The translations under genes and the position numbers were made by a program. Positions 1,666 through 55,677 of a stretch of 64,000 bases of DNA are shown piece after piece (the stretch's first letter is position 1; every line of letters begins with the position of its first letter). Origin of the DNA: Candidatus Levyibacteriota bacterium (GTDB lineage Bacteria > Patescibacteriota > Microgenomatia > Levybacterales > UBA12049); assembly GCA_016182235.1 (NCBI GenBank), contig JACOXT010000003.1:130209-194208 (forward strand), in the 5' to 3' direction. The notes beneath the pieces are model-generated. The model had not been told where the DNA came from and searched no databases. It was given only the letters and a program-made list of their open reading frames with translations.

Positions 1666-2079
1666 CTATTGGGCTAAAATTTTTGCAGCTTCTTGTGCGC
1701 ATTGAGAATCTTGAGCGGTATCGGTTGATCCTCCGACACCTACTCCTCCAACTAGCTTATTTCCTATTTTTACAGGATGTCCTCCTGCTATTGGTGTAAT
1801 TTCTCCACCAAAAATAGTATTGAGTCCGAAATACGGTTTTCCTTCCGCAGTATAAGCACCTATGCCTTCAGTAGGCATGCCTAAGCTTGCCGACGTAAAA
1901 GCTTTGCTATATGCAAACCTTGGACTAATAGGAATTGCTCCATCCATTCTGCCAGCAGCTATTAAACTTCCATGTTCATCGACTATTACGGTAGTTACTG
2001 CAGTTCCTAGCTCTTTTGCTTTTTGTTCGGAAGCCTCAATTGCCCTTTTAGCCTTATCTAGCGTTATCAATACACTCAC
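1666..2079 (-). CDS. GlcG/HbpS-like heme-binding protein (DUF336 family)
   Basis: 137 aa. The GGHPVKIGNKLVGGVGVGGSTDTAQDSQCA motif is typical of GlcG/DUF336. Confidence 0.8.
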   Translation of the reverse strand: MSVLITLDKAKRAIEASEQKAKELGTAVTTVIVDEHGSLIAAGRMDGAIPISPRFAYSKAFTSASLGMPTEGIGAYTAEGKPYFGLNTIFGGEITPIAGGHPVKIGNKLVGGVGVGGSTDTAQDSQCAQEAAKILAQ

Positions 2080-2167
2080 CTCCTTTTACATGTATAATTA
2101 AAACTATAATAACGGATAAGCTTACAGCTTGTCAATCAAAGAATCTATTCTCTATATAGCTCATAAA

Positions 2168-2196
2168 TTGACAAGCCATTGGAGGATATATACAAT
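2168..2196 (+). promoter_or_regulatory. Candidate upstream promoter TTGACA-17-TACAAT
   Basis: TTGACA at 2168-2173 and TACAAT at 2191-2196. The -35 lies inside a 10-bp inverted repeat partnered with 2127-2136. Confidence 0.4.
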
Positions 2197-2232
2197 GATT
2201 AAGAATATTAGTTCCCGCTTTATTATTTTGGC

Positions 2233-2261
2233 TTGACAAAGGGGCGTTAGCAGTATATACT
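2233..2261 (+). promoter_or_regulatory. Consensus sigma70 promoter TTGACA-17-TATACT for gene 2278
   Basis: TTGACA at 2233-2238 and TATACT at 2256-2261. The ATG at 2278 implies a leader of about 9 nt with no Shine-Dalgarno sequence. Confidence 0.6.
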
Positions 2262-2277
2262 ATAAGTTATTATAAAT

Positions 2278-3261
2278 ATGCTTACAGAACGTAGTCTCCC
2301 TTCCCAGGACACATCTAGATTGAAGATCTCTCATGATAAAAATGTAGGGGGACTTCATCCTCTACTGAAAGTGGAGGGTGAAAATGGAACAAAATCTATT
2401 CCTATCCTATCAGTGCGTGAAAAAGCCCATCATGAAGCAATTGCAAATGCAATGGTGTCTGGAGATGCAGTAGCATTTGAAGTAGGAGTAGTTGGGCTCA
2501 TGATTGCTGTCGGTGATAAAAGATTAGGAGGAAATGCCTGGAAAACATTCTGGGAGGTAAAAAAAGGAAGAGCACCCGAAGATAAAGTCCCCTTTATGAT
2601 GTTGCCAGAAGATCATGATAAAGTTGTAGATTTCACTAAAATTCATGAAGATTTCCAATTCTTAAAAGATGCAGAAGCAAGAAAAAAGTTTTTTGGAGCT
2701 TTACCATTTCATACAATTTTACCTATTAGGGAAGATAATGAATCCCTTAATCGTAATGCATTTGTCACTACTCCTGAAGAAACTTTGAAAAAACCTGCAG
2801 ATCAACGCTTATCTGAATCAACTGTTTGTATATATTGGCAAGGTGGAGACACTGATTGGAGACGTATTGCAGAGTTGGCAAAGAAAATAAACCCAGATGT
2901 TTATCTTGGGATAACTTCGCTTAACGAGCATGGTAAGCCTTCTCCTTGGAATTTCAGTGAGCTTTTGAAACATATAGAAGATGGTCGGGGAAAGGAACTT
3001 AATCATATTGTTCAAGATCCAGTAATAGCAAAAGCAGATATAAAAAGTTCTCATACGCAAGTTAGAGTTCCACTTAAGGGAGAAAAGCCTGCAATTATTA
3101 TTGTAAGAAAAGGACCAATAAGCGCAGATACAATTAACAAATTCACCGGTTTTCCAGTTAGAACATTAGAAAGTGCAAAGCTAGCTTCTCGCGGTCATTC
3201 TCCAGACGTCTCTCTTGATGAAAGAATACTTGAACATCTTCAAAAAGTTAATAGAGCTTAA
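2278..3261 (+). CDS. Hypothetical protein, possibly a divergent YrdC/Sua5-like fold
   Basis: Weak resemblance to the YrdC pattern (VKKGRAPEDKVPFMML; SLNEHGKPSP; IIIVRKGPIS). The functional call is uncertain. Confidence 0.4.
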   Translation: MLTERSLPSQDTSRLKISHDKNVGGLHPLLKVEGENGTKSIPILSVREKAHHEAIANAMVSGDAVAFEVGVVGLMIAVGDKRLGGNAWKTFWEVKKGRAPEDKVPFMMLPEDHDKVVDFTKIHEDFQFLKDAEARKKFFGALPFHTILPIREDNESLNRNAFVTTPEETLKKPADQRLSESTVCIYWQGGDTDWRRIAELAKKINPDVYLGITSLNEHGKPSPWNFSELLKHIEDGRGKELNHIVQDPVIAKADIKSSHTQVRVPLKGEKPAIIIVRKGPISADTINKFTGFPVRTLESAKLASRGHSPDVSLDERILEHLQKVNRA

Positions 3262-3337
3262 AAGCATCCCCTCCAATTTTCGTTTACTAGTCAATTAGTT
3301 TCCTCGAATCCAAAATTACTGTATTATAATAAGGACA

Positions 3338-4798
3338 ATGTCCGAAATAACTAATTCACAAATTCTACTATTATTAATTTTAATAGTTATATCTCTTTCT
3401 TTGGGTGGTATATATTACCATAGGAGAAAAGTGGGGGGGATTAGACAGCGATCTGAGAGAGACCTTGAAGAAATAAATAGAGCACTTGTCACAAGCCAGA
3501 GAATAAACAAAATTATTTTGCAAAGTCTCAATTTTGATGATGTTGTCCAGAAAATATCAGATACTATCCCAAATGAACTTTTTTTTGTTACGGGTGTTGT
3601 TGCAGTAATTGAGAAAGTTAAAAGAACAATTAGAAGAGTGGGAGTTTCTTCTACAAAAGAAGCAAGCGAAGCAGTAAGTGCTTTGCGAGTTCCATTTAAT
3701 AAAATTGAGATCTCCTTAGATGATCCAAATAATTTTATGGCTAGAGCTGTCAGAGAAAAAAAAGGTCTTATTACTGAAGATATTTATGACGTACTAGGTC
3801 CTGTTTTGACGCATGATGAAGCAAATAAAATCCAAAATCTTATGGGTACAAAAACAACTGTAGTTTATCCAATTTATGGAGGAAGAGAAGGGGCAATTGG
3901 AGTGTTCGTTGCTAGCACAAAAAAGAAAAAAGAGGATCTTTCAGAATACGATTATGCTATGATTCAAAGTTTTGTTGACGGAGTTGGTATCGCAATGGAA
4001 CATGCAATGTTATATTCAAATCTTGAAAAAACTTCAGAGCAATTACAAGAAGCAAATATAAAATTAAAAGAGGTGGATAAATTGAAAGATGAGTTTGTGT
4101 CTTTGGCGTCTCATGAATTGAGAACTCCTATGACTATAATTAGTTCTTATTTGTGGTTAATGCTAAATAAGGATAATGCTTCCTCGCTTTCCGAAAAACA
4201 AAAAATGTATCTTGACCGTGCGTACATATCGACCCAAAGACTTATAAATTTAGTTAATGACATGCTGAATGTTTCTAGAATTGAATCCGGAAGACTTACT
4301 CTTGCGATAAAACCAACAGATATTGCTGAGCTAGTTAATTCTGTCTATGTAGAGATACTGCCTAAAGCGCAAGTGCAAAAAATAAATTTGATTTTTGAAA
4401 AACCTCAAGAAGTTTTACCCAAAGTTCAAGCTGATCCAGAAAAAATAGAGCAAGTGCTAATAAACTTAATTGGCAATTCACTCAAATTTACGAAAGAGCA
4501 AGGTTTGATAAAGATATCAATAGCTAACAATCCTTTACAAAAAACAGTAACAGTTACAGTTTTGGACGACGGAAAAGGGATAAACAAAGAAGACATACCC
4601 AAGCTTTTTCAAAAGTTTGGTATGGTAGGAAATAATTATCTTGTAAAGCAGAATACCCAAGGAACAGGACTAGGATTGTATTTATCCAAATCGATAATTG
4701 AACTCCATGGAGGAAAAATCTGGGTAGAGTCAGAAGGTGAAGGAAAAGGTTCTAAGTTTAGTTTTACTTTAAAAACAGTGGATAGTAAAGTTAGCTAA
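3338..4798 (+). CDS. Membrane sensor histidine kinase (TM, GAF-like domain, HisKA, HATPase_c)
   Basis: H-box FVSLASHELRTPMT; G-boxes DDGKGI and GTGLGLYLSKSIIELHGGKIWVESEGEGKGSKFSFTL; N-terminal TM helix. Confidence 0.9.
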   Translation: MSEITNSQILLLLILIVISLSLGGIYYHRRKVGGIRQRSERDLEEINRALVTSQRINKIILQSLNFDDVVQKISDTIPNELFFVTGVVAVIEKVKRTIRRVGVSSTKEASEAVSALRVPFNKIEISLDDPNNFMARAVREKKGLITEDIYDVLGPVLTHDEANKIQNLMGTKTTVVYPIYGGREGAIGVFVASTKKKKEDLSEYDYAMIQSFVDGVGIAMEHAMLYSNLEKTSEQLQEANIKLKEVDKLKDEFVSLASHELRTPMTIISSYLWLMLNKDNASSLSEKQKMYLDRAYISTQRLINLVNDMLNVSRIESGRLTLAIKPTDIAELVNSVYVEILPKAQVQKINLIFEKPQEVLPKVQADPEKIEQVLINLIGNSLKFTKEQGLIKISIANNPLQKTVTVTVLDDGKGINKEDIPKLFQKFGMVGNNYLVKQNTQGTGLGLYLSKSIIELHGGKIWVESEGEGKGSKFSFTLKTVDSKVS

Positions 4799-13206: not shown

Positions 13207-14889
13207 ATGCTTATTTCGAATGATCAATTAAAATCGTTAATACTTAAGACTGGTCTTATTGATGAAAGAGGATACGCCAAAATTGAGGCAGAGGCAAAAA
13301 GCGCTGACAGAACAATTTCGGAAATCTTAATTGAAAGAGATGTAATCTCCGATGAGAATTTAGGCATATTAATCGGTGATTTTCTTAAGATCCCTTTTAT
13401 AGTTCTTGCAAAGACTGCGATAGCTCCAGATGTTTTTAATATAGTTCCAGAAAAAATGGCACGAAAGCAAAAAGTGATACCTTTTACTCGCGATAGTAGC
13501 GGAGTTAAGCTTGCGATGGCAGACCCTTTCAACAAAGAATTGGCTCAAATGATATCGAAAAAAATTGGCCTACCTGTTATCCCATATCTTGCTACAGAAC
13601 AAGATATTTACAACACTCTTCGGATATATAGAAAAGATTTACAAAAAACCTTTAACCTTATGGTAAAAAGTGAAATCGGGACAGGCGCAGGAACCATTAA
13701 TGACGTACCGATGACAAAAATTGTTGATTTATTGATAAACTATGCTTATCAAGATAAAGCTTCAGATATCCATATAGAGCCTGAGGAAAAAGATTCTCTG
13801 GTTCGATTTAGAATAGATGGAGTCTTACACGATGTTTTATTCTTGCCGAAAAATCTCCATGACCAGATAATTACAAGAATAAAAATTTTGTCTCGTCTTA
13901 GAACAGATGAGCATTTAAGCCCACAGGACGGAAAAATGAGAATGGTTTTGGAGGAAGAGGAAATTGATATCCGGGTTTCAATCCTCCCTGTTACTGAGGG
14001 CGAGAAGGCAGTTCTAAGACTTTTATCCTCAAGATTTAGAAAGTTTTCTCTTATGGATTTGGGGATGAACGAGAAAGATTTGAAAAAAGTTACGAATGCT
14101 TACAAAAAATCCTATGGAATGATTCTTTCAACGGGCCCTACCGGATCCGGAAAAACCACATCTATTTACGCAATTTTAAAAATATTAAATACAAGAGAGC
14201 AGAATATTACGACAATAGAGGATCCGGTTGAGTATAGAATAAAAGGCGTAAATCAGATTAATGTTAATGCTAAGACAAACCTGACTTTTGCAAGCGGTCT
14301 AAGATCTATTCTTCGGCAAGATCCTAATATAATTTTTGTTGGAGAAATTAGAGATAGCGAAACAGCCGGCATTGCGGTTAACGCTTCTTTGACAGGACAT
14401 TTAGTTCTATCTACCCTTCATACGAATGATGCGGCAACAGCACTGCCCAGACTTTTGGATATGAATATAGAGCCTTTCTTGGTAGCATCAACTATAAATG
14501 TAATTATTGCTCAAAGGCTTGTTCGCAGAATTTGCGAGATGTGCAAAGGCAGCATCTCTATTACAAAAGAGGAACTCTTGCAGAACCTTCCTTCAGATAT
14601 TATTGAAAAGCAAATTGGCAGTAAGAGAAGTGTTACTATTTATCAGGGAATCGGGTGCAAAATATGTCATTTTACTTCTTATTCCGGAAGAGTTGGGGTA
14701 TTTGAAGTTTTGGGTATGACCGAGGCCATAAGGGATTTGGTAGCAAAAAGAAGTAATGCAGATGTAATTTTACAAAAAGCAAAAGAAGAAGGAATGACGA
14801 CAATGCTGGACGATGGTTTGGAAAAGGTGCTAAAAGGAGTTACTACCATAGAGGAGATATTAAGAGTAACAAAGGTACAAATTAATTAA
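13207..14889 (+). CDS. pilB: Type IV pilus assembly ATPase (GspE/PilB family)
   Basis: Walker A GPTGSGKTT; Asp/His boxes; C-terminal CxxC...CxxC tetracysteine motif. Confidence 0.9.
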   Translation: MLISNDQLKSLILKTGLIDERGYAKIEAEAKSADRTISEILIERDVISDENLGILIGDFLKIPFIVLAKTAIAPDVFNIVPEKMARKQKVIPFTRDSSGVKLAMADPFNKELAQMISKKIGLPVIPYLATEQDIYNTLRIYRKDLQKTFNLMVKSEIGTGAGTINDVPMTKIVDLLINYAYQDKASDIHIEPEEKDSLVRFRIDGVLHDVLFLPKNLHDQIITRIKILSRLRTDEHLSPQDGKMRMVLEEEEIDIRVSILPVTEGEKAVLRLLSSRFRKFSLMDLGMNEKDLKKVTNAYKKSYGMILSTGPTGSGKTTSIYAILKILNTREQNITTIEDPVEYRIKGVNQINVNAKTNLTFASGLRSILRQDPNIIFVGEIRDSETAGIAVNASLTGHLVLSTLHTNDAATALPRLLDMNIEPFLVASTINVIIAQRLVRRICEMCKGSISITKEELLQNLPSDIIEKQIGSKRSVTIYQGIGCKICHFTSYSGRVGVFEVLGMTEAIRDLVAKRSNADVILQKAKEEGMTTMLDDGLEKVLKGVTTIEEILRVTKVQIN

Positions 14890-49159: not shown

Positions 49160-49197
49160 TTGACAAATATAATTACAGCATTTATTATATTAATATA
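49160..49197 (+). promoter_or_regulatory. Promoter TTGACA-17-TATTAT with an overlapping 12-bp palindrome TATATTAATATA; likely leaderless start at the ATG at 49197
   Basis: TTGACA at 49160-65, TATTAT at 49183-88, palindrome at 49186-49197. The ATG lies 8 nt after the -10. Confidence 0.5.
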
Positions 49198-49565
49198 TGT
49201 TCAATCGTTCATACATACAACTTCACAAAGGGCATCCTCATTACATGACAGACTCGAAAGCTTTATCCTTGCAAAAAAAGACCACATTGTCTATTGAAGA
49301 AGAAAAGCTTTTAATAATTGCACATAATCTCTCCAATCCCACAAAACTTAAAATCTATTCACTTCTGACAAGAGTAAAATCAATGCCTGTAACAGATATA
49401 AGTCTAATTTTAAATCTTTCTCAATCTGCAGTATCTCATGCATTGGCTGATTTAAGAAATCTGGGACTAGTAGAAAGTTATCGCTGTGGACAATTGATTT
49501 GTTATTCACTCAAAAGAGGTAAACAAAAGAATAAATTCTTAAGTTTTTTTGATAATTTTAATTAG
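49197..49565 (+). CDS. ArsR/SmtB-family transcriptional regulator (copy 1)
   Basis: LSNPTKLKIYSLL...VTDISLILNLSQSAVSHALADLRNLGLV. Confidence 0.8.
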   Translation: MFNRSYIQLHKGHPHYMTDSKALSLQKKTTLSIEEEKLLIIAHNLSNPTKLKIYSLLTRVKSMPVTDISLILNLSQSAVSHALADLRNLGLVESYRCGQLICYSLKRGKQKNKFLSFFDNFN

Positions 49566-49567
49566 CT

Positions 49568-50014
49568 ATGAAACCGTTTAACATTTTTGTAATTTTAATA
49601 CTAGCAATAATTACAATAGGATTTATCTTCTTTAAAGATATGTTTAATTTGCCTCAAAATAAAACTGAGAGCGAGAGTTCTAATAACCCTATTCTAATGG
49701 ATCGGATTAACTATCTTGATTACACAAAAGAGAGCTTAAATTCTTCGAAAGGATCTGGAAGGTCAGTTTTGTTTTTTGCGGCAACTACCTGGTGTCAGAC
49801 TTGTAGTCAGTTAGATAAAGAAATTAAAGAGAATGCCCAACGTTTGCCATCAGATGTAACTATTTTGAAAGTAGATTATGATAATGATAGGGAGATGAAA
49901 AGAGCATGGGGAATAACTATCCAACATACTCTTATTGTTTTGGATAAAGACGGCAAAGAAATCAAAAGATGGGTGGGAGGGAATTTCGATTTACTGCTTA
50001 GGGAGCTTTCTTAA
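49568..50014 (+). CDS. Membrane-anchored thioredoxin-fold protein (CxxC)
   Basis: N-terminal TM; FFAATTWCQTCSQLDKEI. Confidence 0.75.
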   Translation: MKPFNIFVILILAIITIGFIFFKDMFNLPQNKTESESSNNPILMDRINYLDYTKESLNSSKGSGRSVLFFAATTWCQTCSQLDKEIKENAQRLPSDVTILKVDYDNDREMKRAWGITIQHTLIVLDKDGKEIKRWVGGNFDLLLRELS

Positions 50015-50029
50015 GAGGAAAGGCTAGAT

Positions 50030-51037
50030 ATGAAATTTATTATACTAATTATCGGAATCATAGTTTTAATAATTTGGGTATTGATAAACATGCCAAAAAT
50101 ATGGACTCAGATTGATCAATCAAGAGGAGGAACACCGGTGCAAAAAGCAAGCCCCGGTGAAATTGTTGTAAGAAAAGTGTCTTTGCAAAATGATTTTACT
50201 GGAGCTAAGGTAAAACAAGAAGATCTATTGCAGGGGTGTTTTGGACAGGACTGCATTCCTTCTATTGACAGTCCGAAATTTGAATCAGCGCAGGATGCTA
50301 GCTGGTTAAGAGGTGAAGACAGAGTATTTGCAATTGATTATAAGGAAACTCAAAGAGCCTATCCACAAAGAATTTTGAATTGGCATGAGATTGTAAATGA
50401 TACTATAACAGGCGATCCAATTGTCATAACTTTTTGCCCTCTTTGTGGATCAGCTTTGGCATTTGAGCGAAAAGTTGACGGAGTAATCACCGAGCTTGGA
50501 GTATCCGGCAAACTGCATAACTCTGATTTAGTTATGTACGATAGATATGAAGGCAATTTATGGCAGCAAGTTACAGGCGAGGGAATTGTTGGTCCGGCGG
50601 CAAGAAGAAATGAGATTCTAAAACAAGTGCCGATAATAACTGTTCCGTGGGGGCAATGGAAAAAGGAACATCCAGGAACACAAGTTCTTTCAAGGGATAC
50701 GGGCCATAGCAGGAATTACGACCAATACCCCTATGGAACTTACGAACAGGATGATGAAATTTACTTCGGAGTTAAAGATCTAAACAGACAACTTCAAATA
50801 AAAACAGTAGTCTATGGAGTAGAGATAAATGGATCATCTAAGGCTTACCCTGAAAGTGTTTTTGATAAGAGAAAAGTAGTTGAGGACACGGTTGGAAATA
50901 CAGCAATAAGATTGGAAAGAACTGACTCAGGACAAATTAAAGTCACTAACTTGCAAACCCAAGAGGAAATCATTCCAATTCGGCTATTCTGGTTTGCCTG
51001 GGCAGCATTCCATCCGGATACAGAGCTTTTTAAGTAA
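50030..51037 (+). CDS. DUF3179 domain protein (membrane-anchored)
   Basis: DCIPSIDSPKF, YPQRILNWHEIVND, ITFCPLCGS, GVSGKLHNSDLVMYDR..GNLWQQ. Confidence 0.8.
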   Translation: MKFIILIIGIIVLIIWVLINMPKIWTQIDQSRGGTPVQKASPGEIVVRKVSLQNDFTGAKVKQEDLLQGCFGQDCIPSIDSPKFESAQDASWLRGEDRVFAIDYKETQRAYPQRILNWHEIVNDTITGDPIVITFCPLCGSALAFERKVDGVITELGVSGKLHNSDLVMYDRYEGNLWQQVTGEGIVGPAARRNEILKQVPIITVPWGQWKKEHPGTQVLSRDTGHSRNYDQYPYGTYEQDDEIYFGVKDLNRQLQIKTVVYGVEINGSSKAYPESVFDKRKVVEDTVGNTAIRLERTDSGQIKVTNLQTQEEIIPIRLFWFAWAAFHPDTELFK

Positions 51038-51270: not shown

Positions 51271-51318
51271 TTGACAGACAGATTTTAAAGATGTATTATT
51301 TGAATAATCGTTCAAATA
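51271..51318 (+). promoter_or_regulatory. Promoter TTGACA-17-TATTAT plus operator TATTTGAA-N6-TTCAAATA
   Basis: TTGACA at 51271-76 and TATTAT at 51294-99. A perfect 8-bp inverted repeat at 51297-51318 overlaps the -10. The same operator recurs at 53581-53602. Confidence 0.7.
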
Positions 51319-51320
51319 GT

Positions 51321-51632
51321 ATGGATAAACACTCTTGGATTAAAAAGAAATTAGGTAATAAAAAAGAACTGGTTGAGTGTGCCAAGCAGCTGGGAGTTGT
51401 TGGTGACACTACCAGACTCAAGATTTGTTATCTTCTCTGCAATTATCCAGAGATAAGTGTTGGCGATATGGCAGAAATATTAGATACCTCTGTTTCCGTT
51501 GTTTCCCATAGCGTTAAGAAACTTCTTAAACTTGATCTTGTAAAAAGAAGAAAGGAAGCTCAGACAGTATATTACTCGCTTGCAAAGAACGAGTTTACAA
51601 GGACTTTGAGAGATTTCATTACGAGTCTATGA
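51321..51632 (+). CDS. ArsR/SmtB-family metal-sensing regulator (copy 2)
   Basis: TTRLKICYLLCNYPEISVGDMAEILDTSVSVVSHSVKKL. Start moved to the ATG at 51321 because 51291 lies inside the promoter/operator. Confidence 0.8.
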   Translation: MDKHSWIKKKLGNKKELVECAKQLGVVGDTTRLKICYLLCNYPEISVGDMAEILDTSVSVVSHSVKKLLKLDLVKRRKEAQTVYYSLAKNEFTRTLRDFITSL

Positions 51633-51838
51633 AAAATAATGAATCAAAAATGAACAATTGGATTTTTCTTGCTGCTATTTTCTGCTGCGGATTGCCTTTA
51701 TTGCTTCTTTTGGGCGCAGGGTCAGCTTTTGCGCTAGGCATAAGTTTCTTAACAGACAATCTAATCTTTCTGATTTTAGGACTGGTTTTTGCTTTTGTAT
51801 TTATCTGGTTGTTTATAAAAAGGAGAGTTGGTGAGTAA
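51629..51838 (+). CDS. Small two-TM protein with a vicinal Cys pair in TM1 (MerT/MerF-like)
   Basis: AAIFCCGLPLLLLLGAG resembles the CC-x-x-P motif of the first TM helix of mercury transporters. Confidence 0.5.
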   Translation: MKNNESKMNNWIFLAAIFCCGLPLLLLLGAGSAFALGISFLTDNLIFLILGLVFAFVFIWLFIKRRVGE

Positions 51839-52397
51839 TTCTAGTATGGTAAAAATTACAAGTACTATAATTGTGATTGCGGTTGTGGTTCTCGGACTTC
51901 TTACAACAGACGTTATCAAATTTGGGGAGTCGAGTTCTGAGACTAAAGTCTCATCGCAAGTTCAGACTGCTGGTTTGTCCATCGGAGACAAGGCTCCGGA
52001 TTTTACACTTACTACTATTGATGGCGTAAATTTGACGCAAAGCAATCTTCAGGGAAAAATTCTGGTAATTACATCTGGTGCTGCCTGGTGCCCAACCTGC
52101 ATTATTGAAAATAAAAATTTCAATCCAGTTTTTAAGGAAGTCAAAGATAAAGGAGTTGAGTTTATAACAGTTGACATAGACCCGATAGATGACGAAGTGG
52201 CAATTGCTGAATTTCAAAGACTTTATGCGCCTTGGCATAATGTTTCGCAAGAAAACGCAAAGAAAATGATTGAAGATTATGGATTTTGGAGATTTGAAAT
52301 TACTTATATTGTAGATAGAGAAGGAATTATCCGCTTTAAAGATGGTGGTATTACCTCAACAGAAACTCTACGCAACGAGCTTGGTAAACTAATATGA
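51828..52397 (+). CDS. Membrane-anchored TlpA-like thiol:disulfide oxidoreductase (redoxin fold)
   Basis: GKILVITSGAAWCPTC. Confidence 0.8.
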   Translation: MVSNSSMVKITSTIIVIAVVVLGLLTTDVIKFGESSSETKVSSQVQTAGLSIGDKAPDFTLTTIDGVNLTQSNLQGKILVITSGAAWCPTCIIENKNFNPVFKEVKDKGVEFITVDIDPIDDEVAIAEFQRLYAPWHNVSQENAKKMIEDYGFWRFEITYIVDREGIIRFKDGGITSTETLRNELGKLI

Positions 52398-53056
52398 TTG
52401 ATTCGGGACTATTAATACTTGCTTCTACCTCCGGCATTTTTGCTTTTTTTACACCATGCAGCGTGGCCTTGATTCCCGGCTTTGTAGGTTTTCTCGTGAA
52501 GACTGACGACGAAGGCAAGATATTAAGAGGGGTGAAAGTCGGGTTAGTTTCTGCTTTGGGGCTTTTGACTGTTTTTATGGGGCTGGGACTCCTGATAAGT
52601 TTGTTTGGCAATTTTATAGCGCCTTTTACATTCTTTATTGGCGTTACTGCCGGAGTGATACTGATTATTTTGGGTCTGTATCTTCTGGCAGGGAAAACGA
52701 TAGGTGTGGCTATTCCTAATTCGATAGGGGAAAATCGCGGAGTTAAAGGATATTTTTTATTTGGAGCGACTTATGGACTTGCCTCTTTGAGCTGCACTTT
52801 GCCTATTTTTCTTCTGGTAATGTTTCAGGCTTTGTCTGTAGGCGGAGCAAAAGCGGGAATACTGATCTTTTTAATTTACAGCGCAACAGCAGCCTCTTTT
52901 ATGGCGCTGACTGCTTTTGCAGCTATTCTATCCAAGGATTTAGTGAGAAATTACCTTGGAAAAGCATTGCCTGTTGTAACAAGACTTAGCCCAATTCTAA
53001 TAATATTGGCAGGAATGTATCTGATATATTTTCAGTTAAGAGCTTTTTATTTATGA
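52394..53056 (+). CDS. ccdA: CcdA/DsbD-type transmembrane thiol-disulfide electron transporter
   Basis: FFTPCSVALIPGFVG and ASLSCTLPIFL, one conserved Cys in each half. Confidence 0.75.
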   Translation: MIDSGLLILASTSGIFAFFTPCSVALIPGFVGFLVKTDDEGKILRGVKVGLVSALGLLTVFMGLGLLISLFGNFIAPFTFFIGVTAGVILIILGLYLLAGKTIGVAIPNSIGENRGVKGYFLFGATYGLASLSCTLPIFLLVMFQALSVGGAKAGILIFLIYSATAASFMALTAFAAILSKDLVRNYLGKALPVVTRLSPILIILAGMYLIYFQLRAFYL

Positions 53057-53574
53057 GAGAGGTTTACTTGGCAATAATAAACGTTTTTAAGGAAAGAAAT
53101 TATTTTTTGGCTTTTGTACTTATAGCAATGGTCTTTTTTGCGCTGTTTATTTTTATTCCTGTTTTCACTATTCCAGGAAATGATCTTGGGTTTCAACTGT
53201 CCATTTACTCGCAAAAGGACTATGTTCTGATGTTTTTATTAGCCGCTCTGGTAGGACTTAATTTGGCCTTGCAAGTTTATATTTTTAGAAAACAAAGAGA
53301 GGAACGCAGGTTAACTCAGTCAACAGGTCAATTAGCAGTGTCGGGAATTTCTGGAGTATTTGGAGCAGTTGTTGGGACAGCGGCCTGTGCATCATGTCTT
53401 GCATTCTTTTTCGGACTTATTGGGTTGGGAGCAGGAAGCGTCATTTTTGTTTTGAATAATCAAATATATTTTTTTGTTGGCGCAATAATTTTGCTCTTAA
53501 TTTCTCTATATTTTACAGCTCGAAAAGTTAATGGTGTCTGTGAATCTTGCCATATTGACAAAGCGAAAACATAG
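53053..53574 (+). CDS. Integral membrane protein with an intramembrane CASC and a C-terminal CESC motif (unknown; candidate metal or thiol handling)
   Basis: VGTAACASCLAFFFGLIGLG; NGVCESCHIDKAKT. Confidence 0.5.
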   Translation: MREVYLAIINVFKERNYFLAFVLIAMVFFALFIFIPVFTIPGNDLGFQLSIYSQKDYVLMFLLAALVGLNLALQVYIFRKQREERRLTQSTGQLAVSGISGVFGAVVGTAACASCLAFFFGLIGLGAGSVIFVLNNQIYFFVGAIILLLISLYFTARKVNGVCESCHIDKAKT

Positions 53575-53602
53575 AGTTACTATTTGAATAGTTGTTCAAA
53601 TA
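53555..53602 (+). promoter_or_regulatory. Internal promoter TTGACA-17-TACTAT plus a second copy of the operator TATTTGAA-N6-TTCAAATA, upstream of the merA-like gene
   Basis: TTGACA at 53555-60, TACTAT at 53578-83, inverted repeat at 53581-53602. Confidence 0.65.
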
Positions 53603-53608
53603 AATATT

Positions 53609-55009
53609 ATGGATACTTATGATTTAATTATCATCGGCGGCGGAGCAGGAGCTTTTGCTGCGGCTATCAAAGCCAATGAACTTGGCGCAAAAACTTTGAT
53701 GGTTAATAAAGGATTACCTCTCGGTGGAACTTGCGTCAATGTGGGTTGTGTTCCTTCCAAGACTTTACTTTGGGCAGGGGAAGTAATGCACCTTGCCAAA
53801 AACCATAAAATTCCGGGAATTGATATGGAAGTAAAAAACTTCGATTTTGCAACTGTTCTTCAGCATGAACTCGATCTTGTTGCAAAATTAAGAGAAGAAA
53901 AATATGAGAAGGTGCTAAGGAATTTAGAAAACGTCACTCATTTAGAAGGACGCGCATCTTTTGTGTCTGCAAATGAAATTGAGGTTAATGGTCAGAAATA
54001 TCAAGGAAAGAAATTTATTATTGCCGCCGGATCAACAACTACAGTACCGCCGATTGAAGGTATTAAGGAGGTAGGCTTTATAACCCATATTGAAGCCTTA
54101 AAACTTAAAGAACAGCCAAAAGAACTGATTGTTATTGGTGCGGGTCCTGTAGGGCTTGAGTTTGCCCAAATGTATGCCCGGTTCGGCACGAAGGTAACAA
54201 TTCTTCATAGAGGCTCAACTATTTTTAGAGGTGAAGAAGAATTGACCACAAGATTGGCAGAGATACTGACTGATGAAGATATTACTATTAAAACAAATGT
54301 CCAAGTGAAAAGTGCGAGAAAAGAAGGCGACAAAAAGATTGTTTCCTATCTTGTTGAGGGCAAGCAGGAAGAAGTAGTGGCAGATGAAGTTTTACTCGCC
54401 GTTGGCAAAACACCAAATACGAAAGATCTAGGACTTGATAAAGCCGGCATTGAAATTGATGAAAAACAAGCAATCAAAGTAAGTCCCAATTTTCAAACTT
54501 CTCAACAGTATGTTTATGCGGTAGGCGATGTAATAAACTTACCCATAAGACAAGAACCGACAGCAGGTAGAGAAGGAACATTAGCTGCTGAAAATGCTCT
54601 GAAAAATACGCAAAATAGTATTGACTACAATACTGTTCCCTGGACTATTTTTACAGACCCGCAACTTGCAGGAGTTGGATTTACCGAGGAGGAACAGATG
54701 AAACGGTTTGGAACGTGTATGTGTAAGGCTGTCTCTTTCAAAGATATACCTAAAGCTATTATTTTAAATAGAACCGAAGGACTTATTAAGATGGCAATTC
54801 ACCCAGAAACAAAACAAATTATGGGGGTTCATATTCTGGCGCCTAATGCGGGAGAGTTAATCGCGCAAGCTATGATTCTTATTAAAAATAAAAATACTAT
54901 TGACGATGTTGTTAATTCCCTGCCGATGTTTCCGACACTTTCCGAGGCTATTAAAATTGCCGCCCTATCCTTTACCCAAGACATTACCAAACTTAGTTGT
55001 TGTGTTTAG
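53609..55009 (+). CDS. merA: Mercuric reductase-like FAD-dependent disulfide oxidoreductase (core MerA without the NmerA domain)
   Basis: Redox-active GGTCVNVGCVPSK and a C-terminal vicinal cysteine pair ...ITKLSCCV, as in MerA. Confidence 0.7.
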   Translation: MDTYDLIIIGGGAGAFAAAIKANELGAKTLMVNKGLPLGGTCVNVGCVPSKTLLWAGEVMHLAKNHKIPGIDMEVKNFDFATVLQHELDLVAKLREEKYEKVLRNLENVTHLEGRASFVSANEIEVNGQKYQGKKFIIAAGSTTTVPPIEGIKEVGFITHIEALKLKEQPKELIVIGAGPVGLEFAQMYARFGTKVTILHRGSTIFRGEEELTTRLAEILTDEDITIKTNVQVKSARKEGDKKIVSYLVEGKQEEVVADEVLLAVGKTPNTKDLGLDKAGIEIDEKQAIKVSPNFQTSQQYVYAVGDVINLPIRQEPTAGREGTLAAENALKNTQNSIDYNTVPWTIFTDPQLAGVGFTEEEQMKRFGTCMCKAVSFKDIPKAIILNRTEGLIKMAIHPETKQIMGVHILAPNAGELIAQAMILIKNKNTIDDVVNSLPMFPTLSEAIKIAALSFTQDITKLSCCV

Positions 55010-55011
55010 CT

Positions 55012-55677
55012 ATGAATAGTAAACTTTGGTATTTAAAACAATTAAATCTTTTTAAATCATTACCTCAAAAAGAGGTCGAGATGCTTTCGCACAATCTGGT
55101 GATGAAGGAATACGGCAAGAGGAAAGTTATTTTAGAGCCCGAAGATAGCGATAAAGTTTTTATATTAAAGATGGGGAGGGTAGAAATATATGAACTGACC
55201 CCTGATGGCAAAAAGATCATTGTGGATATCCTTACCCCAGGGAATGTTTTTGGGGACTTAGGTGTTGAAGAAACAAATGAGAATTTTGTAGAAGCCACAA
55301 CAAATTCACTTGTTTGTGTTATGAAAAAACAGGAATTCTTCGAGATGGTATCTAAAAACCTGGCTGTTTCTTATCAGCTGATTCGGGAGCTGTTCCAAAA
55401 AACTGTTGAAGATAAAAAAACTGTTGCAGCATTAGCTTCTGATAGTTTACTCACTAAGGTCAAAAACTTACTATTAAGATTGGCTAAAAGATATGGAGAG
55501 AAAAAAGAAAATACAGTAACCATAGCTGCTAAGTTTACTCATGAGGAGTTGGCAGACATGGTGGGAATTTCCCGTCCAACGATGACTGAACTGCTTAATA
55601 AACTAGATCGCATAGGGGTTATTAAAAGAGTAGGAAAAATTATTACATTTGATCCCCGGAAACTTGCTGAGATATAG
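55012..55677 (+). CDS. Crp/Fnr-family transcriptional regulator (no FNR Cys cluster)
   Basis: cNMP-binding-like beta-roll followed by a C-terminal HTH HEELADMVGISRPTMTELLNKL. ATG at 55012 preferred over the TTG at 54997. Confidence 0.85.
   Translation: MNSKLWYLKQLNLFKSLPQKEVEMLSHNLVMKEYGKRKVILEPEDSDKVFILKMGRVEIYELTPDGKKIIVDILTPGNVFGDLGVEETNENFVEATTNSLVCVMKKQEFFEMVSKNLAVSYQLIRELFQKTVEDKKTVAALASDSLLTKVKNLLLRLAKRYGEKKENTVTIAAKFTHEELADMVGISRPTMTELLNKLDRIGVIKRVGKIITFDPRKLAEI

Follow-up and report, generated by a model that had tools for sequence, protein, structure and literature searches.

The DNA analysed here is a stretch of 64,000 nucleotides (the window) of contig JACOXT010000003.1 from a metagenome-assembled genome of Candidatus Levybacteria, one of the lineages that make up the candidate phyla radiation (CPR). 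A gene cluster on its + strand is probably an inducible mer operon for resistance to Hg(II), repressed by ArsR and built on the Gram-positive/actinobacterial plan. The cluster begins with arsR (51321–51632), which encodes an ArsR/SmtB metalloregulator of 103 amino acids (aa). It is followed by the gene of a 69-aa protein with two transmembrane (TM) helices and the vicinal pair C19-C20, called CC69 below (51629–51838), by tlpA (51846–52397, with an alternative TTG start at 51828), which encodes a membrane-anchored TlpA/ResA-like redoxin with the motif WCPTC, and by ccdA (52394–53056), encoding a CcdA-like six-TM protein with Cys22 and Cys134. The fifth gene (53053–53574) encodes a 173-aa four-TM protein, P5, with the motifs C112-A-S-C115 and C163-E-S-C166. 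The sixth, merA (53609–55009), encodes a 466-aa core mercuric reductase with the active site GGTCVNVGCVPSK and a C-terminal LSCCV, and without the NmerA domain. The assignment is carried by the identities of the genes, the conservation of their motifs, the conservation and position of two operators, and the synteny with experimentally studied mer operons. An original prediction made from the letters alone had described a mer-like operon controlled by ArsR, with its operator in two copies, and this description stands: the reductase passed the MerA equivalog model and the operator proved to be conserved. All the genes and cysteine motifs listed in that prediction were found in the sequence. The absence of MerR, MerP and NmerA was likewise borne out, with no MerR-family regulator among the 10 proteins scanned. 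When all frames were scanned for the GMxCxxC (MerP/HMA) motif, none turned up in the operon or its vicinity; the window has just two matches to this pattern, at positions 14647 and 19814, both approximately 32–37 kb distant.

The product of merA scored 514.4 bits against the MerA equivalog model TIGR02053 (cutoff 454.45), and its scores against all other flavoprotein disulfide reductase models remained below their cutoffs. Its best solved relatives were the MerA structures 5x1y, 4ywo (Metallosphaera) and 1zk7. The redox motif C42-VNVG-C47 (CxxxxC, near the FAD) aligned with the active site of 5x1y and 4ywo, and C464-C465 (...KLSCCV) with the C-terminal CC of the same structures, equivalent to C558/C559 in Tn501. 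Residue Y98 (EKY) is conserved in both aligned structures and corresponds, by alignment, to Tyr264 in the numbering of Bacillus RC607. Position 605 of that numbering is a Phe in the window (PMFPT), as in the archaeal MerA 4ywo (HMFPT); Tyr264 and Tyr/Phe605 are the criteria quoted for MerA in PMC3466566. The related loci used for comparison are labelled L001–L074. In the other CPR mer loci the merA product is 65–84% identical to that of the window, and the closest plasmid-borne relative, at 45.8%, is found on a Thermococcus plasmid. The MerA of CPR bacteria has already been catalogued, in a lineage beside Thermococci and Archaeoglobi (PMC8261052), and the archaeal-like enzyme with its Phe605 fits this placement. 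An exact look-up of the window MerA protein found no entry in the contig collection.

Several further features of the reductase and of its surroundings were observed. An additional CxC motif, C370-M-C372 (54716–54724, GTCMCK), is present in the window MerA, in L005 (GTCMCK) and in L015 (KICACR), and is not seen in the solved MerA structures aligned. In L005 (2593–3111) and L015 (3411–3887), a gene absent from the window lies directly upstream of merA. Its 158–172-aa product shows a phosphatase-like HCQNGHGRAP (CX5R) motif, NQCCQTHF and a C-terminal ECC, and could be a cytosolic mercury-handling stand-in for NmerA. The CPR-type mer clusters of L001, L005 and L006 come from GTDB records titled “uncultured Gammaproteobacteria bacterium”, labels which are probably wrong. 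The MerA of L001 and L005 is 76–78% identical to that of the window, and L006 contains P5 only.

The TlpA and CcdA genes that precede merA have clear precedents in mer operons of cultured bacteria. TlpA matched AhpC-TSA (63.1 bits, cutoff 26) and Redoxin (44.3 bits, cutoff 26.6). A hydrophobic stretch read from its sequence at residues 5–20 forms the membrane anchor, and its CxxC (C82 and C85, in WCPTC) is invariant across the mer-linked homologues of Mycobacterium, S. aureus and CPR. The CcdA-like protein is 28–31% identical, over 92–100% of the length, to the products of annotated CcdA genes, some of them in mer operons, with E values down to 3e-12. Its cysteines (TPC22 and SC134TLP) are invariant in the alignment of mer-linked homologues. 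When it was used to search plasmids, 40 of the 84 matches were staphylococcal, with E values of 3e-12 to 9e-12 for the staphylococcal copies among the matches listed. On plasmid pSMC-4_3 of Mycobacterium sp. SMC-4, ArsR, a 99-aa two-TM protein (IVCCAGP), TlpA, CcdA and a mercuric reductase are encoded beside merA-merR-merB. The order is merA, merB, a 97-aa CC protein, redoxin and CcdA on a plasmid of M. dioxanotrophicus, and merR, TlpA, CcdA, merT, merA and merB on S. aureus plasmids of the pI258 type. The general order regulator/(CC protein)/TlpA/CcdA/(MerT)/MerA, all in one direction, is thus that of the SMC-4 and S. aureus loci (L012 and L014), and the survey of CPR synteny showed that it recurs in the CPR loci L005 and L008. 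In the M. dioxanotrophicus locus (L074) the trio CC protein-redoxin-CcdA lies downstream of merA-merB. The CcdA-like and thioredoxin-like mer products of Streptomyces lividans are reportedly named MerT and MerP (Sedlmeier and Altenbuchner 1992; Brunker 1996), and the arrangement merR(ArsR)-merT-merP / merA-merB of S. lividans 1326 is said to be the prototype of the actinobacterial type. We take the TlpA/CcdA-type mer proteins to correspond to ORF3 and ORF4 of pI258 (Laddaga 1987). The original prediction had seen in the association of CcdA/TlpA with MerA a non-canonical architecture, possibly one for detoxifying another metal or disulfides. The architecture turns out to be a standard one in Gram-positive mer operons, as on these mycobacterial and S. 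aureus plasmids, and the idea of a different route finds no support.

P5 is identical to the NCBI protein record with locus tag HYT07_01280. Of its four predicted TM helices, the third contains the CASC motif within the membrane, and the CESC motif is located in the cytoplasmic C-terminus. C112 and C115 never vary among 87 homologues, at least 90% of which also possess C163 and C166; in alignment A1 all four cysteines are invariant. The residues P36, P41, N43 and L63, in and after a loop of sequence IPxxTxPGN, are also invariant among the 87. When 1.84 billion proteins were searched with the family profile, 444 clusters at 50% identity were obtained, with a P5-like length in all of the 150 clusters among the matches listed. 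No Pfam or NCBIfam model was found for this family and its members are called “hypothetical”. Named members belong to the CPR (Levy-, Giovannoni-, Kerfeld-, Yanofsky- and Peregrinibacteria) and to DPANN archaea. The P5 gene adjoins merA in approximately 30 of 68 related loci, which are mostly short contigs, and is often beside TlpA and arsR; in most of the longer loci it lies beside merA, TlpA or arsR.

The similarity of P5 to MerT (models PF02411, NF033560 and NF010314) was below the curated cutoffs throughout. The C-terminal halves of five family members matched positions 4–78 of Pfam MerT (PF02411) with E values of 3e-7 to 2e-5, in alignments which span both the TM cysteine site and the cytoplasmic cysteine site. 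The best family member reached 31.0 bits for a cutoff of 32.9. The window P5 itself scored 16.5 bits against merT_RC607 (E 0.0084, cutoff 130) and had no match to Pfam MerT. The pairwise BLASTP comparison with the MerT of pI258 was not significant, and tblastn against plasmids gave no match at E 1, hence no demonstrable link to plasmid transporters such as MerH. Only chance matches were obtained with the P5 profile among PDB sequences, and the Foldseek comparison of the P5 model with the PDB returned one meaningless match (E 8.9). Because of the four conserved cysteines, the sub-threshold similarity to MerT and the recurrent adjacency to merA, P5 was reckoned to be MerT-like. We conclude that it would work like MerT, with mercury passing from intramembrane thiols to cytoplasmic thiols and on to the C-terminal CC of MerA. 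In terms of descent, P5 would be distantly related to MerT and found a CPR/DPANN family of its own, not to be filed as a MerT member; the original prediction had not noted this relationship. One JGI fragment of the family is named “DsbB”; a DsbB/VKOR-like oxidase was rejected given the lack of support from profile models, the ill-fitting position of the cysteines (in the middle of TM3 and in the cytoplasmic tail) and the linkage to merA. A wider proposal, which we regard as a serious possibility although still short of probable, is that P5 represents an unrecognized class of Hg(II) importers of CPR and DPANN, defined by a TM3 with TAACxSC, a CxxC at the C-terminus and the outer IPxxTxPGN loop. 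Such importers would hand mercury directly to the C-terminal cysteines of an archaeal-type MerA lacking NmerA. Together with an ArsR clade possessing three cysteines, they would form a mer module shared laterally between CPR and DPANN and regulated in a manner of its own, the two operators serving to restore merA dosage where this gene is distal.

The small protein CC69 contains FCCGLP at residues 18–23, in TM1, and is thus a two-TM protein with a CC(x)xP motif. A motif of the CCxxP type occupies the same position in L012 (IVCCAGP), in L074 (ACCALLP) and in the MerT of pI258 (LCCAGP). In mycobacterial mer operons two-TM CC proteins sit after the regulator, as CC69 does, and orthologues 47–59% identical to CC69 are encoded after arsR in L005, L017, L018, L042 and L044. 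Its scores were below the cutoffs for MerE (17.6 bits, cutoff 80, E 0.0027) and MerTP (14.9 bits, cutoff 180, E 0.016). There was no significant pairwise BLASTP match with the MerT of pI258, and the match with the mycobacterial 99-aa protein was confined to the CC helix (E 0.006). By these features CC69 is a candidate Hg(II) transporter of the MerE/MerF/MerT kind, and would likewise work as MerE/MerF do.

We propose the following route for the metal. Outside the membrane, the CxxC of TlpA would capture Hg(II), as an analogue of MerP; alternatively, or in addition, TlpA reduced by CcdA would keep the entry thiols in a reduced state. Hg(II) would then cross by ligand exchange through the intramembrane cysteines, namely the CC in CC69, the pair of TM cysteines in CcdA and the P5 CxSC. 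On the cytoplasmic side, the C-terminal CxxC of P5 would deliver it directly to the C-terminal CC of MerA, which lacks NmerA, and MerA would use NAD(P)H to reduce Hg(II) to volatile Hg(0). The reaction is established for the MerA family, and the route by which Hg(II) reaches the enzyme through TlpA, CC69, CcdA and P5 is one that we infer.

It is possible, though less likely than not, that in this mer operon TlpA and CcdA only carry electrons, from a cytoplasmic reductant to CcdA, to TlpA and then to the outward-facing cysteines of CC69, P5 and surface proteins, and that CC69 and P5 alone move Hg(II). The passing of reductant outward is the established role of the CcdA and TlpA/ResA families, and both window proteins have kept the canonical redox cysteines. 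In L005 (1634–2071) and L018 (5558–5998) the slot of ccdA, between tlpA and the P5 gene, is occupied by a gene for a membrane protein of 145–146 aa, by its appearance a P5 paralogue, with CC in a cytoplasmic loop, an intramembrane GACPAC and no family match. CcdA thus appears dispensable at that position; a CcdA-like gene is present after merA in L005 instead, and several mer loci contain P5 and merA without CcdA. Against this stands a review table in which the actinobacterial proteins with TrxA and CcdA domains are listed as “mercury transporter”, and the ArsR-domain protein as the mer repressor (PMC12195606). The names MerT and MerP reportedly given to the Streptomyces products point the same way.

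The regulator passed both NF033788 (64.1 bits, cutoff 55) and PF01022 HTH_5 (35.8 bits, cutoff 22). Its start was placed at the ATG at position 51321 and not at 51291, and the orthologues start at the same place. The protein possesses three cysteines, C20, C36 and C40, the last two in the motif KICYLLC, and all three are conserved in the five CPR orthologues examined. Including these, all the cysteines of the first five encoded proteins fall within the motifs named here. A trigonal Hg(II) site formed by C20, C36 and C40 is plausible from their pattern. Both regulators of the ArsR type and MerA without NmerA are known from mer operons, as documented for Archaea, Bacteroidetes and Actinobacteria (PMC3466566).

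The inverted repeat TATTTGAA-N6-TTCAAATA occurs in exactly two perfect copies in the 64-kb window, for an expectation of 0.00 (100 dinucleotide shuffles), and no extra copy was found there when up to two mismatches were allowed. Both are imperfect inverted repeats of the ArsR/SmtB 12-2-12 type with the core TGAA-N6-TTCA. The first operator, O1 (51297–51318, TATTTGAA-TAATCG-TTCAAATA), ends 2 nucleotides (nt) before the arsR ATG and follows promoter P1 (51271–51299, + strand, TTGACA-17-TATTAT, 11/12 with respect to the consensus). The second, O2 (53581–53602, TATTTGAA-TAGTTG-TTCAAATA), ends 6 nt before the merA ATG and follows promoter P2 (53555–53583, + strand, TTGACA-17-TACTAT, 10/12). P1 and P2 are among the five best sigma-70-like sites of the region from 48 to 57 kb. 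At both places the operator shares 3 nt with the -10 element, in an identical geometry and in agreement with the overlap originally predicted. The second promoter had been placed within the 3'-terminal part of the gene before it. Its -35 element does lie there, in the codons for ...H-I-D-K of the P5 gene, and its -10 element is located just past the P5 stop codon (53572–53574).

The operator is conserved among the relatives. In the 68 related loci (355 kb) from which operator counts were made, the core TTGAA-N6-TTCAA was present at 11 sites for 0.67 expected. Nine of these, from eight non-redundant loci, precede an arsR start by 0–33 nt; the other two come after a P5 gene, in L018 and L019. 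A TTGAC -35-like element precedes 8 of the 11 sites, the exceptions being in L015, L036 and L007. All 10 non-redundant loci bearing arsR have an operator copy with at most one mismatch 0–33 nt before this gene; in L005 it is identical to O1, spacer included. The complete layout TTGAC(A)/-10/operator before arsR was also observed in L005, L008, L017, L018, L042 and L044.

On the model of the behaviour of the family, without mercury an ArsR dimer would occupy both operators, covering the -10 element and the start region of the two strong sigma-70-like promoters. Binding of Hg(II), the presumed inducer, to the thiolates of C20, C36 and C40 would release the repressor from DNA. P1 would then drive arsR and the CC69, tlpA, ccdA and P5 genes, with translational coupling through ATGA overlaps, and P2 would provide merA and the following crp gene with a repressor-controlled start of their own, in addition to read-through from P1.

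Several observations weigh against assigning the cluster to mercury in this way. Against the mer transporter families, CC69 and P5 both score below the curated thresholds throughout, and the CcdA-like protein matched Pfam DsbD_TM with 19.5 bits for a cutoff of 27.1, over residues 12–91 only. The AlphaFold models of P5 reached a pLDDT of 65 (18 sequences) or 70 (87 sequences), with the cysteine-bearing TM3 poorly defined; in view of these weak models and of the null structure searches, no fold-based conclusion was drawn for P5. The cysteine pattern of the window ArsR is unlike that of the mycobacterial mer-linked ArsR. At the second sites of L018 and L019 the -35/-10 geometry is non-canonical, and downstream of either window promoter there is no room for a Shine-Dalgarno sequence. 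TlpA-CcdA pairs are also found beside copper genes (SCO, sulfocyanin) on other plasmids, and are thus not mercury-specific. The mer genes of CPR are, moreover, known from sequence only.

The copper-linked pairs are one of the arguments for assigning the operon to another thiol-reactive stress (Ag, Au, Cd, Cu, or disulfides and oxidants), in which the MerA-like enzyme would reduce disulfides or oxidants and TlpA/CcdA would be purely a reducing path outside the cytoplasm. The reductase also gave strong sub-threshold scores with the models of lipoamide dehydrogenase, glutathione, RclA and hypothiocyanite reductases. The effector of ArsR is one that we infer, and in L018 the stretch immediately upstream of the arsR operator (2052–4361) encodes a heavy-metal P-type ATPase whose N-terminus bears an HMA domain with GMHCASC, so that in some genomes the module belongs to a broader metal-resistance neighbourhood. 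However, MerA is the sole model whose curated cutoff was passed, the C-terminal cysteine pair and the Tyr/Phe residues which define MerA are not found in RclA-type enzymes, and in cultured bacteria the cassette is located with merB and bona fide merA. This alternative is consequently improbable, and a mer operon remains our reading of the cluster.

In most relatives merA lies directly after arsR. In the window it comes only sixth, and an ArsR-controlled promoter of its own plausibly restores its expression at this distal position. The internal second operator and promoter before merA are a new feature of this operon. A second operator right after the P5 gene also exists in L018 (position 6537) and L019 (position 1143). 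One may ask whether the second repeat is a non-working relic of the rearrangement that moved merA away from arsR, merA being then transcribed by read-through from P1 only. The prevailing position of merA in the relatives, where it either follows arsR or lies 8–20 nt from P5 without a second site, would accord with such an origin, as would the fact that no terminator was predicted between P5 and merA. Comparison of the two promoter regions showed that the -35 and -10 elements, the half-sites and their spacing are conserved and that the sequences of both spacers, the 17-nt one of the promoter and that of the operator, are different. Since only the functional elements are conserved between the two copies, selection is indicated rather than a recent duplication. 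In L018 and L019, moreover, the second operator is present although their P5 is only about 72–75% identical. A relic is for these reasons very unlikely, and we favour a functional O2/P2 pair. The inverted repeats do not form a terminator or attenuator, a possibility ruled out by their 8-bp AT-rich stems without a T-tract and by a scan which predicted no terminator on the + strand.

Two other observations concern these junctions. In L015 (991–5319) a 58-codon fragment, 91% identical to the N-terminus of MerA, follows P5, and downstream of it lie approximately 2.7 kb with three long open reading frames (102, 300 and 323 aa), then the phosphatase-like gene and a full merA. This arrangement looks like an insertion or rearrangement exactly between P5 and merA, the place of O2/P2 in the window. 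The transcripts controlled by the operators would have leaders (51300–51323 and 53584–53611) of approximately 15–20 nt which are A/T-rich and without Shine-Dalgarno sequence, and the operator-to-ATG gap of 2–3 nt is conserved in L005, L017, L018, L042 and L044. Such short leaders, combined with the conserved gap, suggest that translation of the operator-controlled genes is initiated independently of a Shine-Dalgarno sequence.

Two neighbours of the operon had no place in the original prediction. Downstream of merA lies a Crp/Fnr-family regulator gene (crp, 55012–55677, + strand), the product of which passes Pfam cNMP_binding and HTH_Crp_2. Its start is 2 nt past the merA stop and it is probably co-transcribed with merA from P2. 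The same gene is also found after merA in L015 (67% identity) and near P5-merA in L010/L067. Directly upstream of arsR lies a second operon (49160–51037), with a promoter TTGACA-17-TATTAT at 49160–49188. It comprises a second ArsR-family gene (49197–49565), the only cysteines of which are in SYRCGQLIC, an anchored thioredoxin-like gene with CQTC (49568–50014) and a DUF3179 gene with CxxxC/CxxC motifs (50030–51037). The TTGAA-N6-TTCAA operator is not present in this upstream operon, where a ATATTAATAT palindrome follows the -10 element instead. DUF3179 genes were also observed in L010/L067, close to P5-merA, and in L017, past merA, and the upstream operon may for this reason be part of the same metal/thiol stress island. 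The GC content of the mer operon (37.7%) is close to that of the window (36.5%), and a recent horizontal insertion was discarded because it left no signal in the composition.

The map presented here is the first of a mer operon in a CPR bacterium, earlier surveys having catalogued MerA only. What had been announced as a possibly new detoxification route becomes a well-anchored mer operon with one uncharacterized transporter family; the system is of a known kind and reveals no new detoxification chemistry. The novelty lies in the MerT-like family linked to merA in CPR and DPANN, in the ArsR clade with three cysteines, which could serve as a mercury sensor or biosensor part, and in the compact operator/promoter pair. 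Since the map links the operon to a gene arrangement already investigated in staphylococci and actinobacteria, an annotation of these organisms as probable reducers of Hg(II) becomes possible, with relevance to groundwater mercury cycling.

Compared with known systems, the operators belong with the 12-2-12 sites of the ArsR/SmtB family (SmtB, ZiaR, AztR, CzrA), with which they share the overlap with the promoter. Over its 16 central nt, O2 exactly matches the aztA operator published for Anabaena, TACAATTGAATA-GT-TGTTCAATTGTT (PMC8790569). The window operators differ from these sites in being tied to a mer operon and in existing as two copies 2.3 kb apart in one cluster. The predicted sensing site differs as well, with a cysteine of the alpha-1/2 region and a CxxxC in alpha-3. 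The MerT of Tn501/Tn21 and Bacillus RC607 and P5 have a common logic, an intramembrane cysteine pair followed by a cytoplasmic one, which in P5 is the C-terminal CxxC. P5 is distinguished by its four TM helices, its N-terminal extension with the IPxxTxPGN loop and the CxSC in TM3 which replaces the vicinal CC in TM1 of MerT, all matches between the two being below cutoff. The S. aureus pI258-type operon resembles that of the window by TlpA and CcdA placed ahead of a small cysteine-pair transporter and merA. Unlike the window it has a MerR activator/repressor, merB and a MerA with NmerA, and its MerT, of 2 TM helices, has one CC in TM1 and another at the C-terminus, in contrast to the 4-TM P5 with CxSC and CxxC. 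The mycobacterial operons (SMC-4, M. dioxanotrophicus) have in common with the window the order ArsR-CC protein-TlpA-CcdA-MerA (in SMC-4), the CxxC and the CcdA cysteines, with protein identities of only 18–30%. Their mer-linked ArsR has cysteines at the C-terminus and in the alpha-5 region, whereas the window ArsR has C20, C36 and C40, and the window MerA belongs to an archaeal-like CPR lineage. With respect to the actinobacterial plan, the window thus adds the P5 gene between ccdA and merA, dispenses with merB and places a second operator and promoter before merA.

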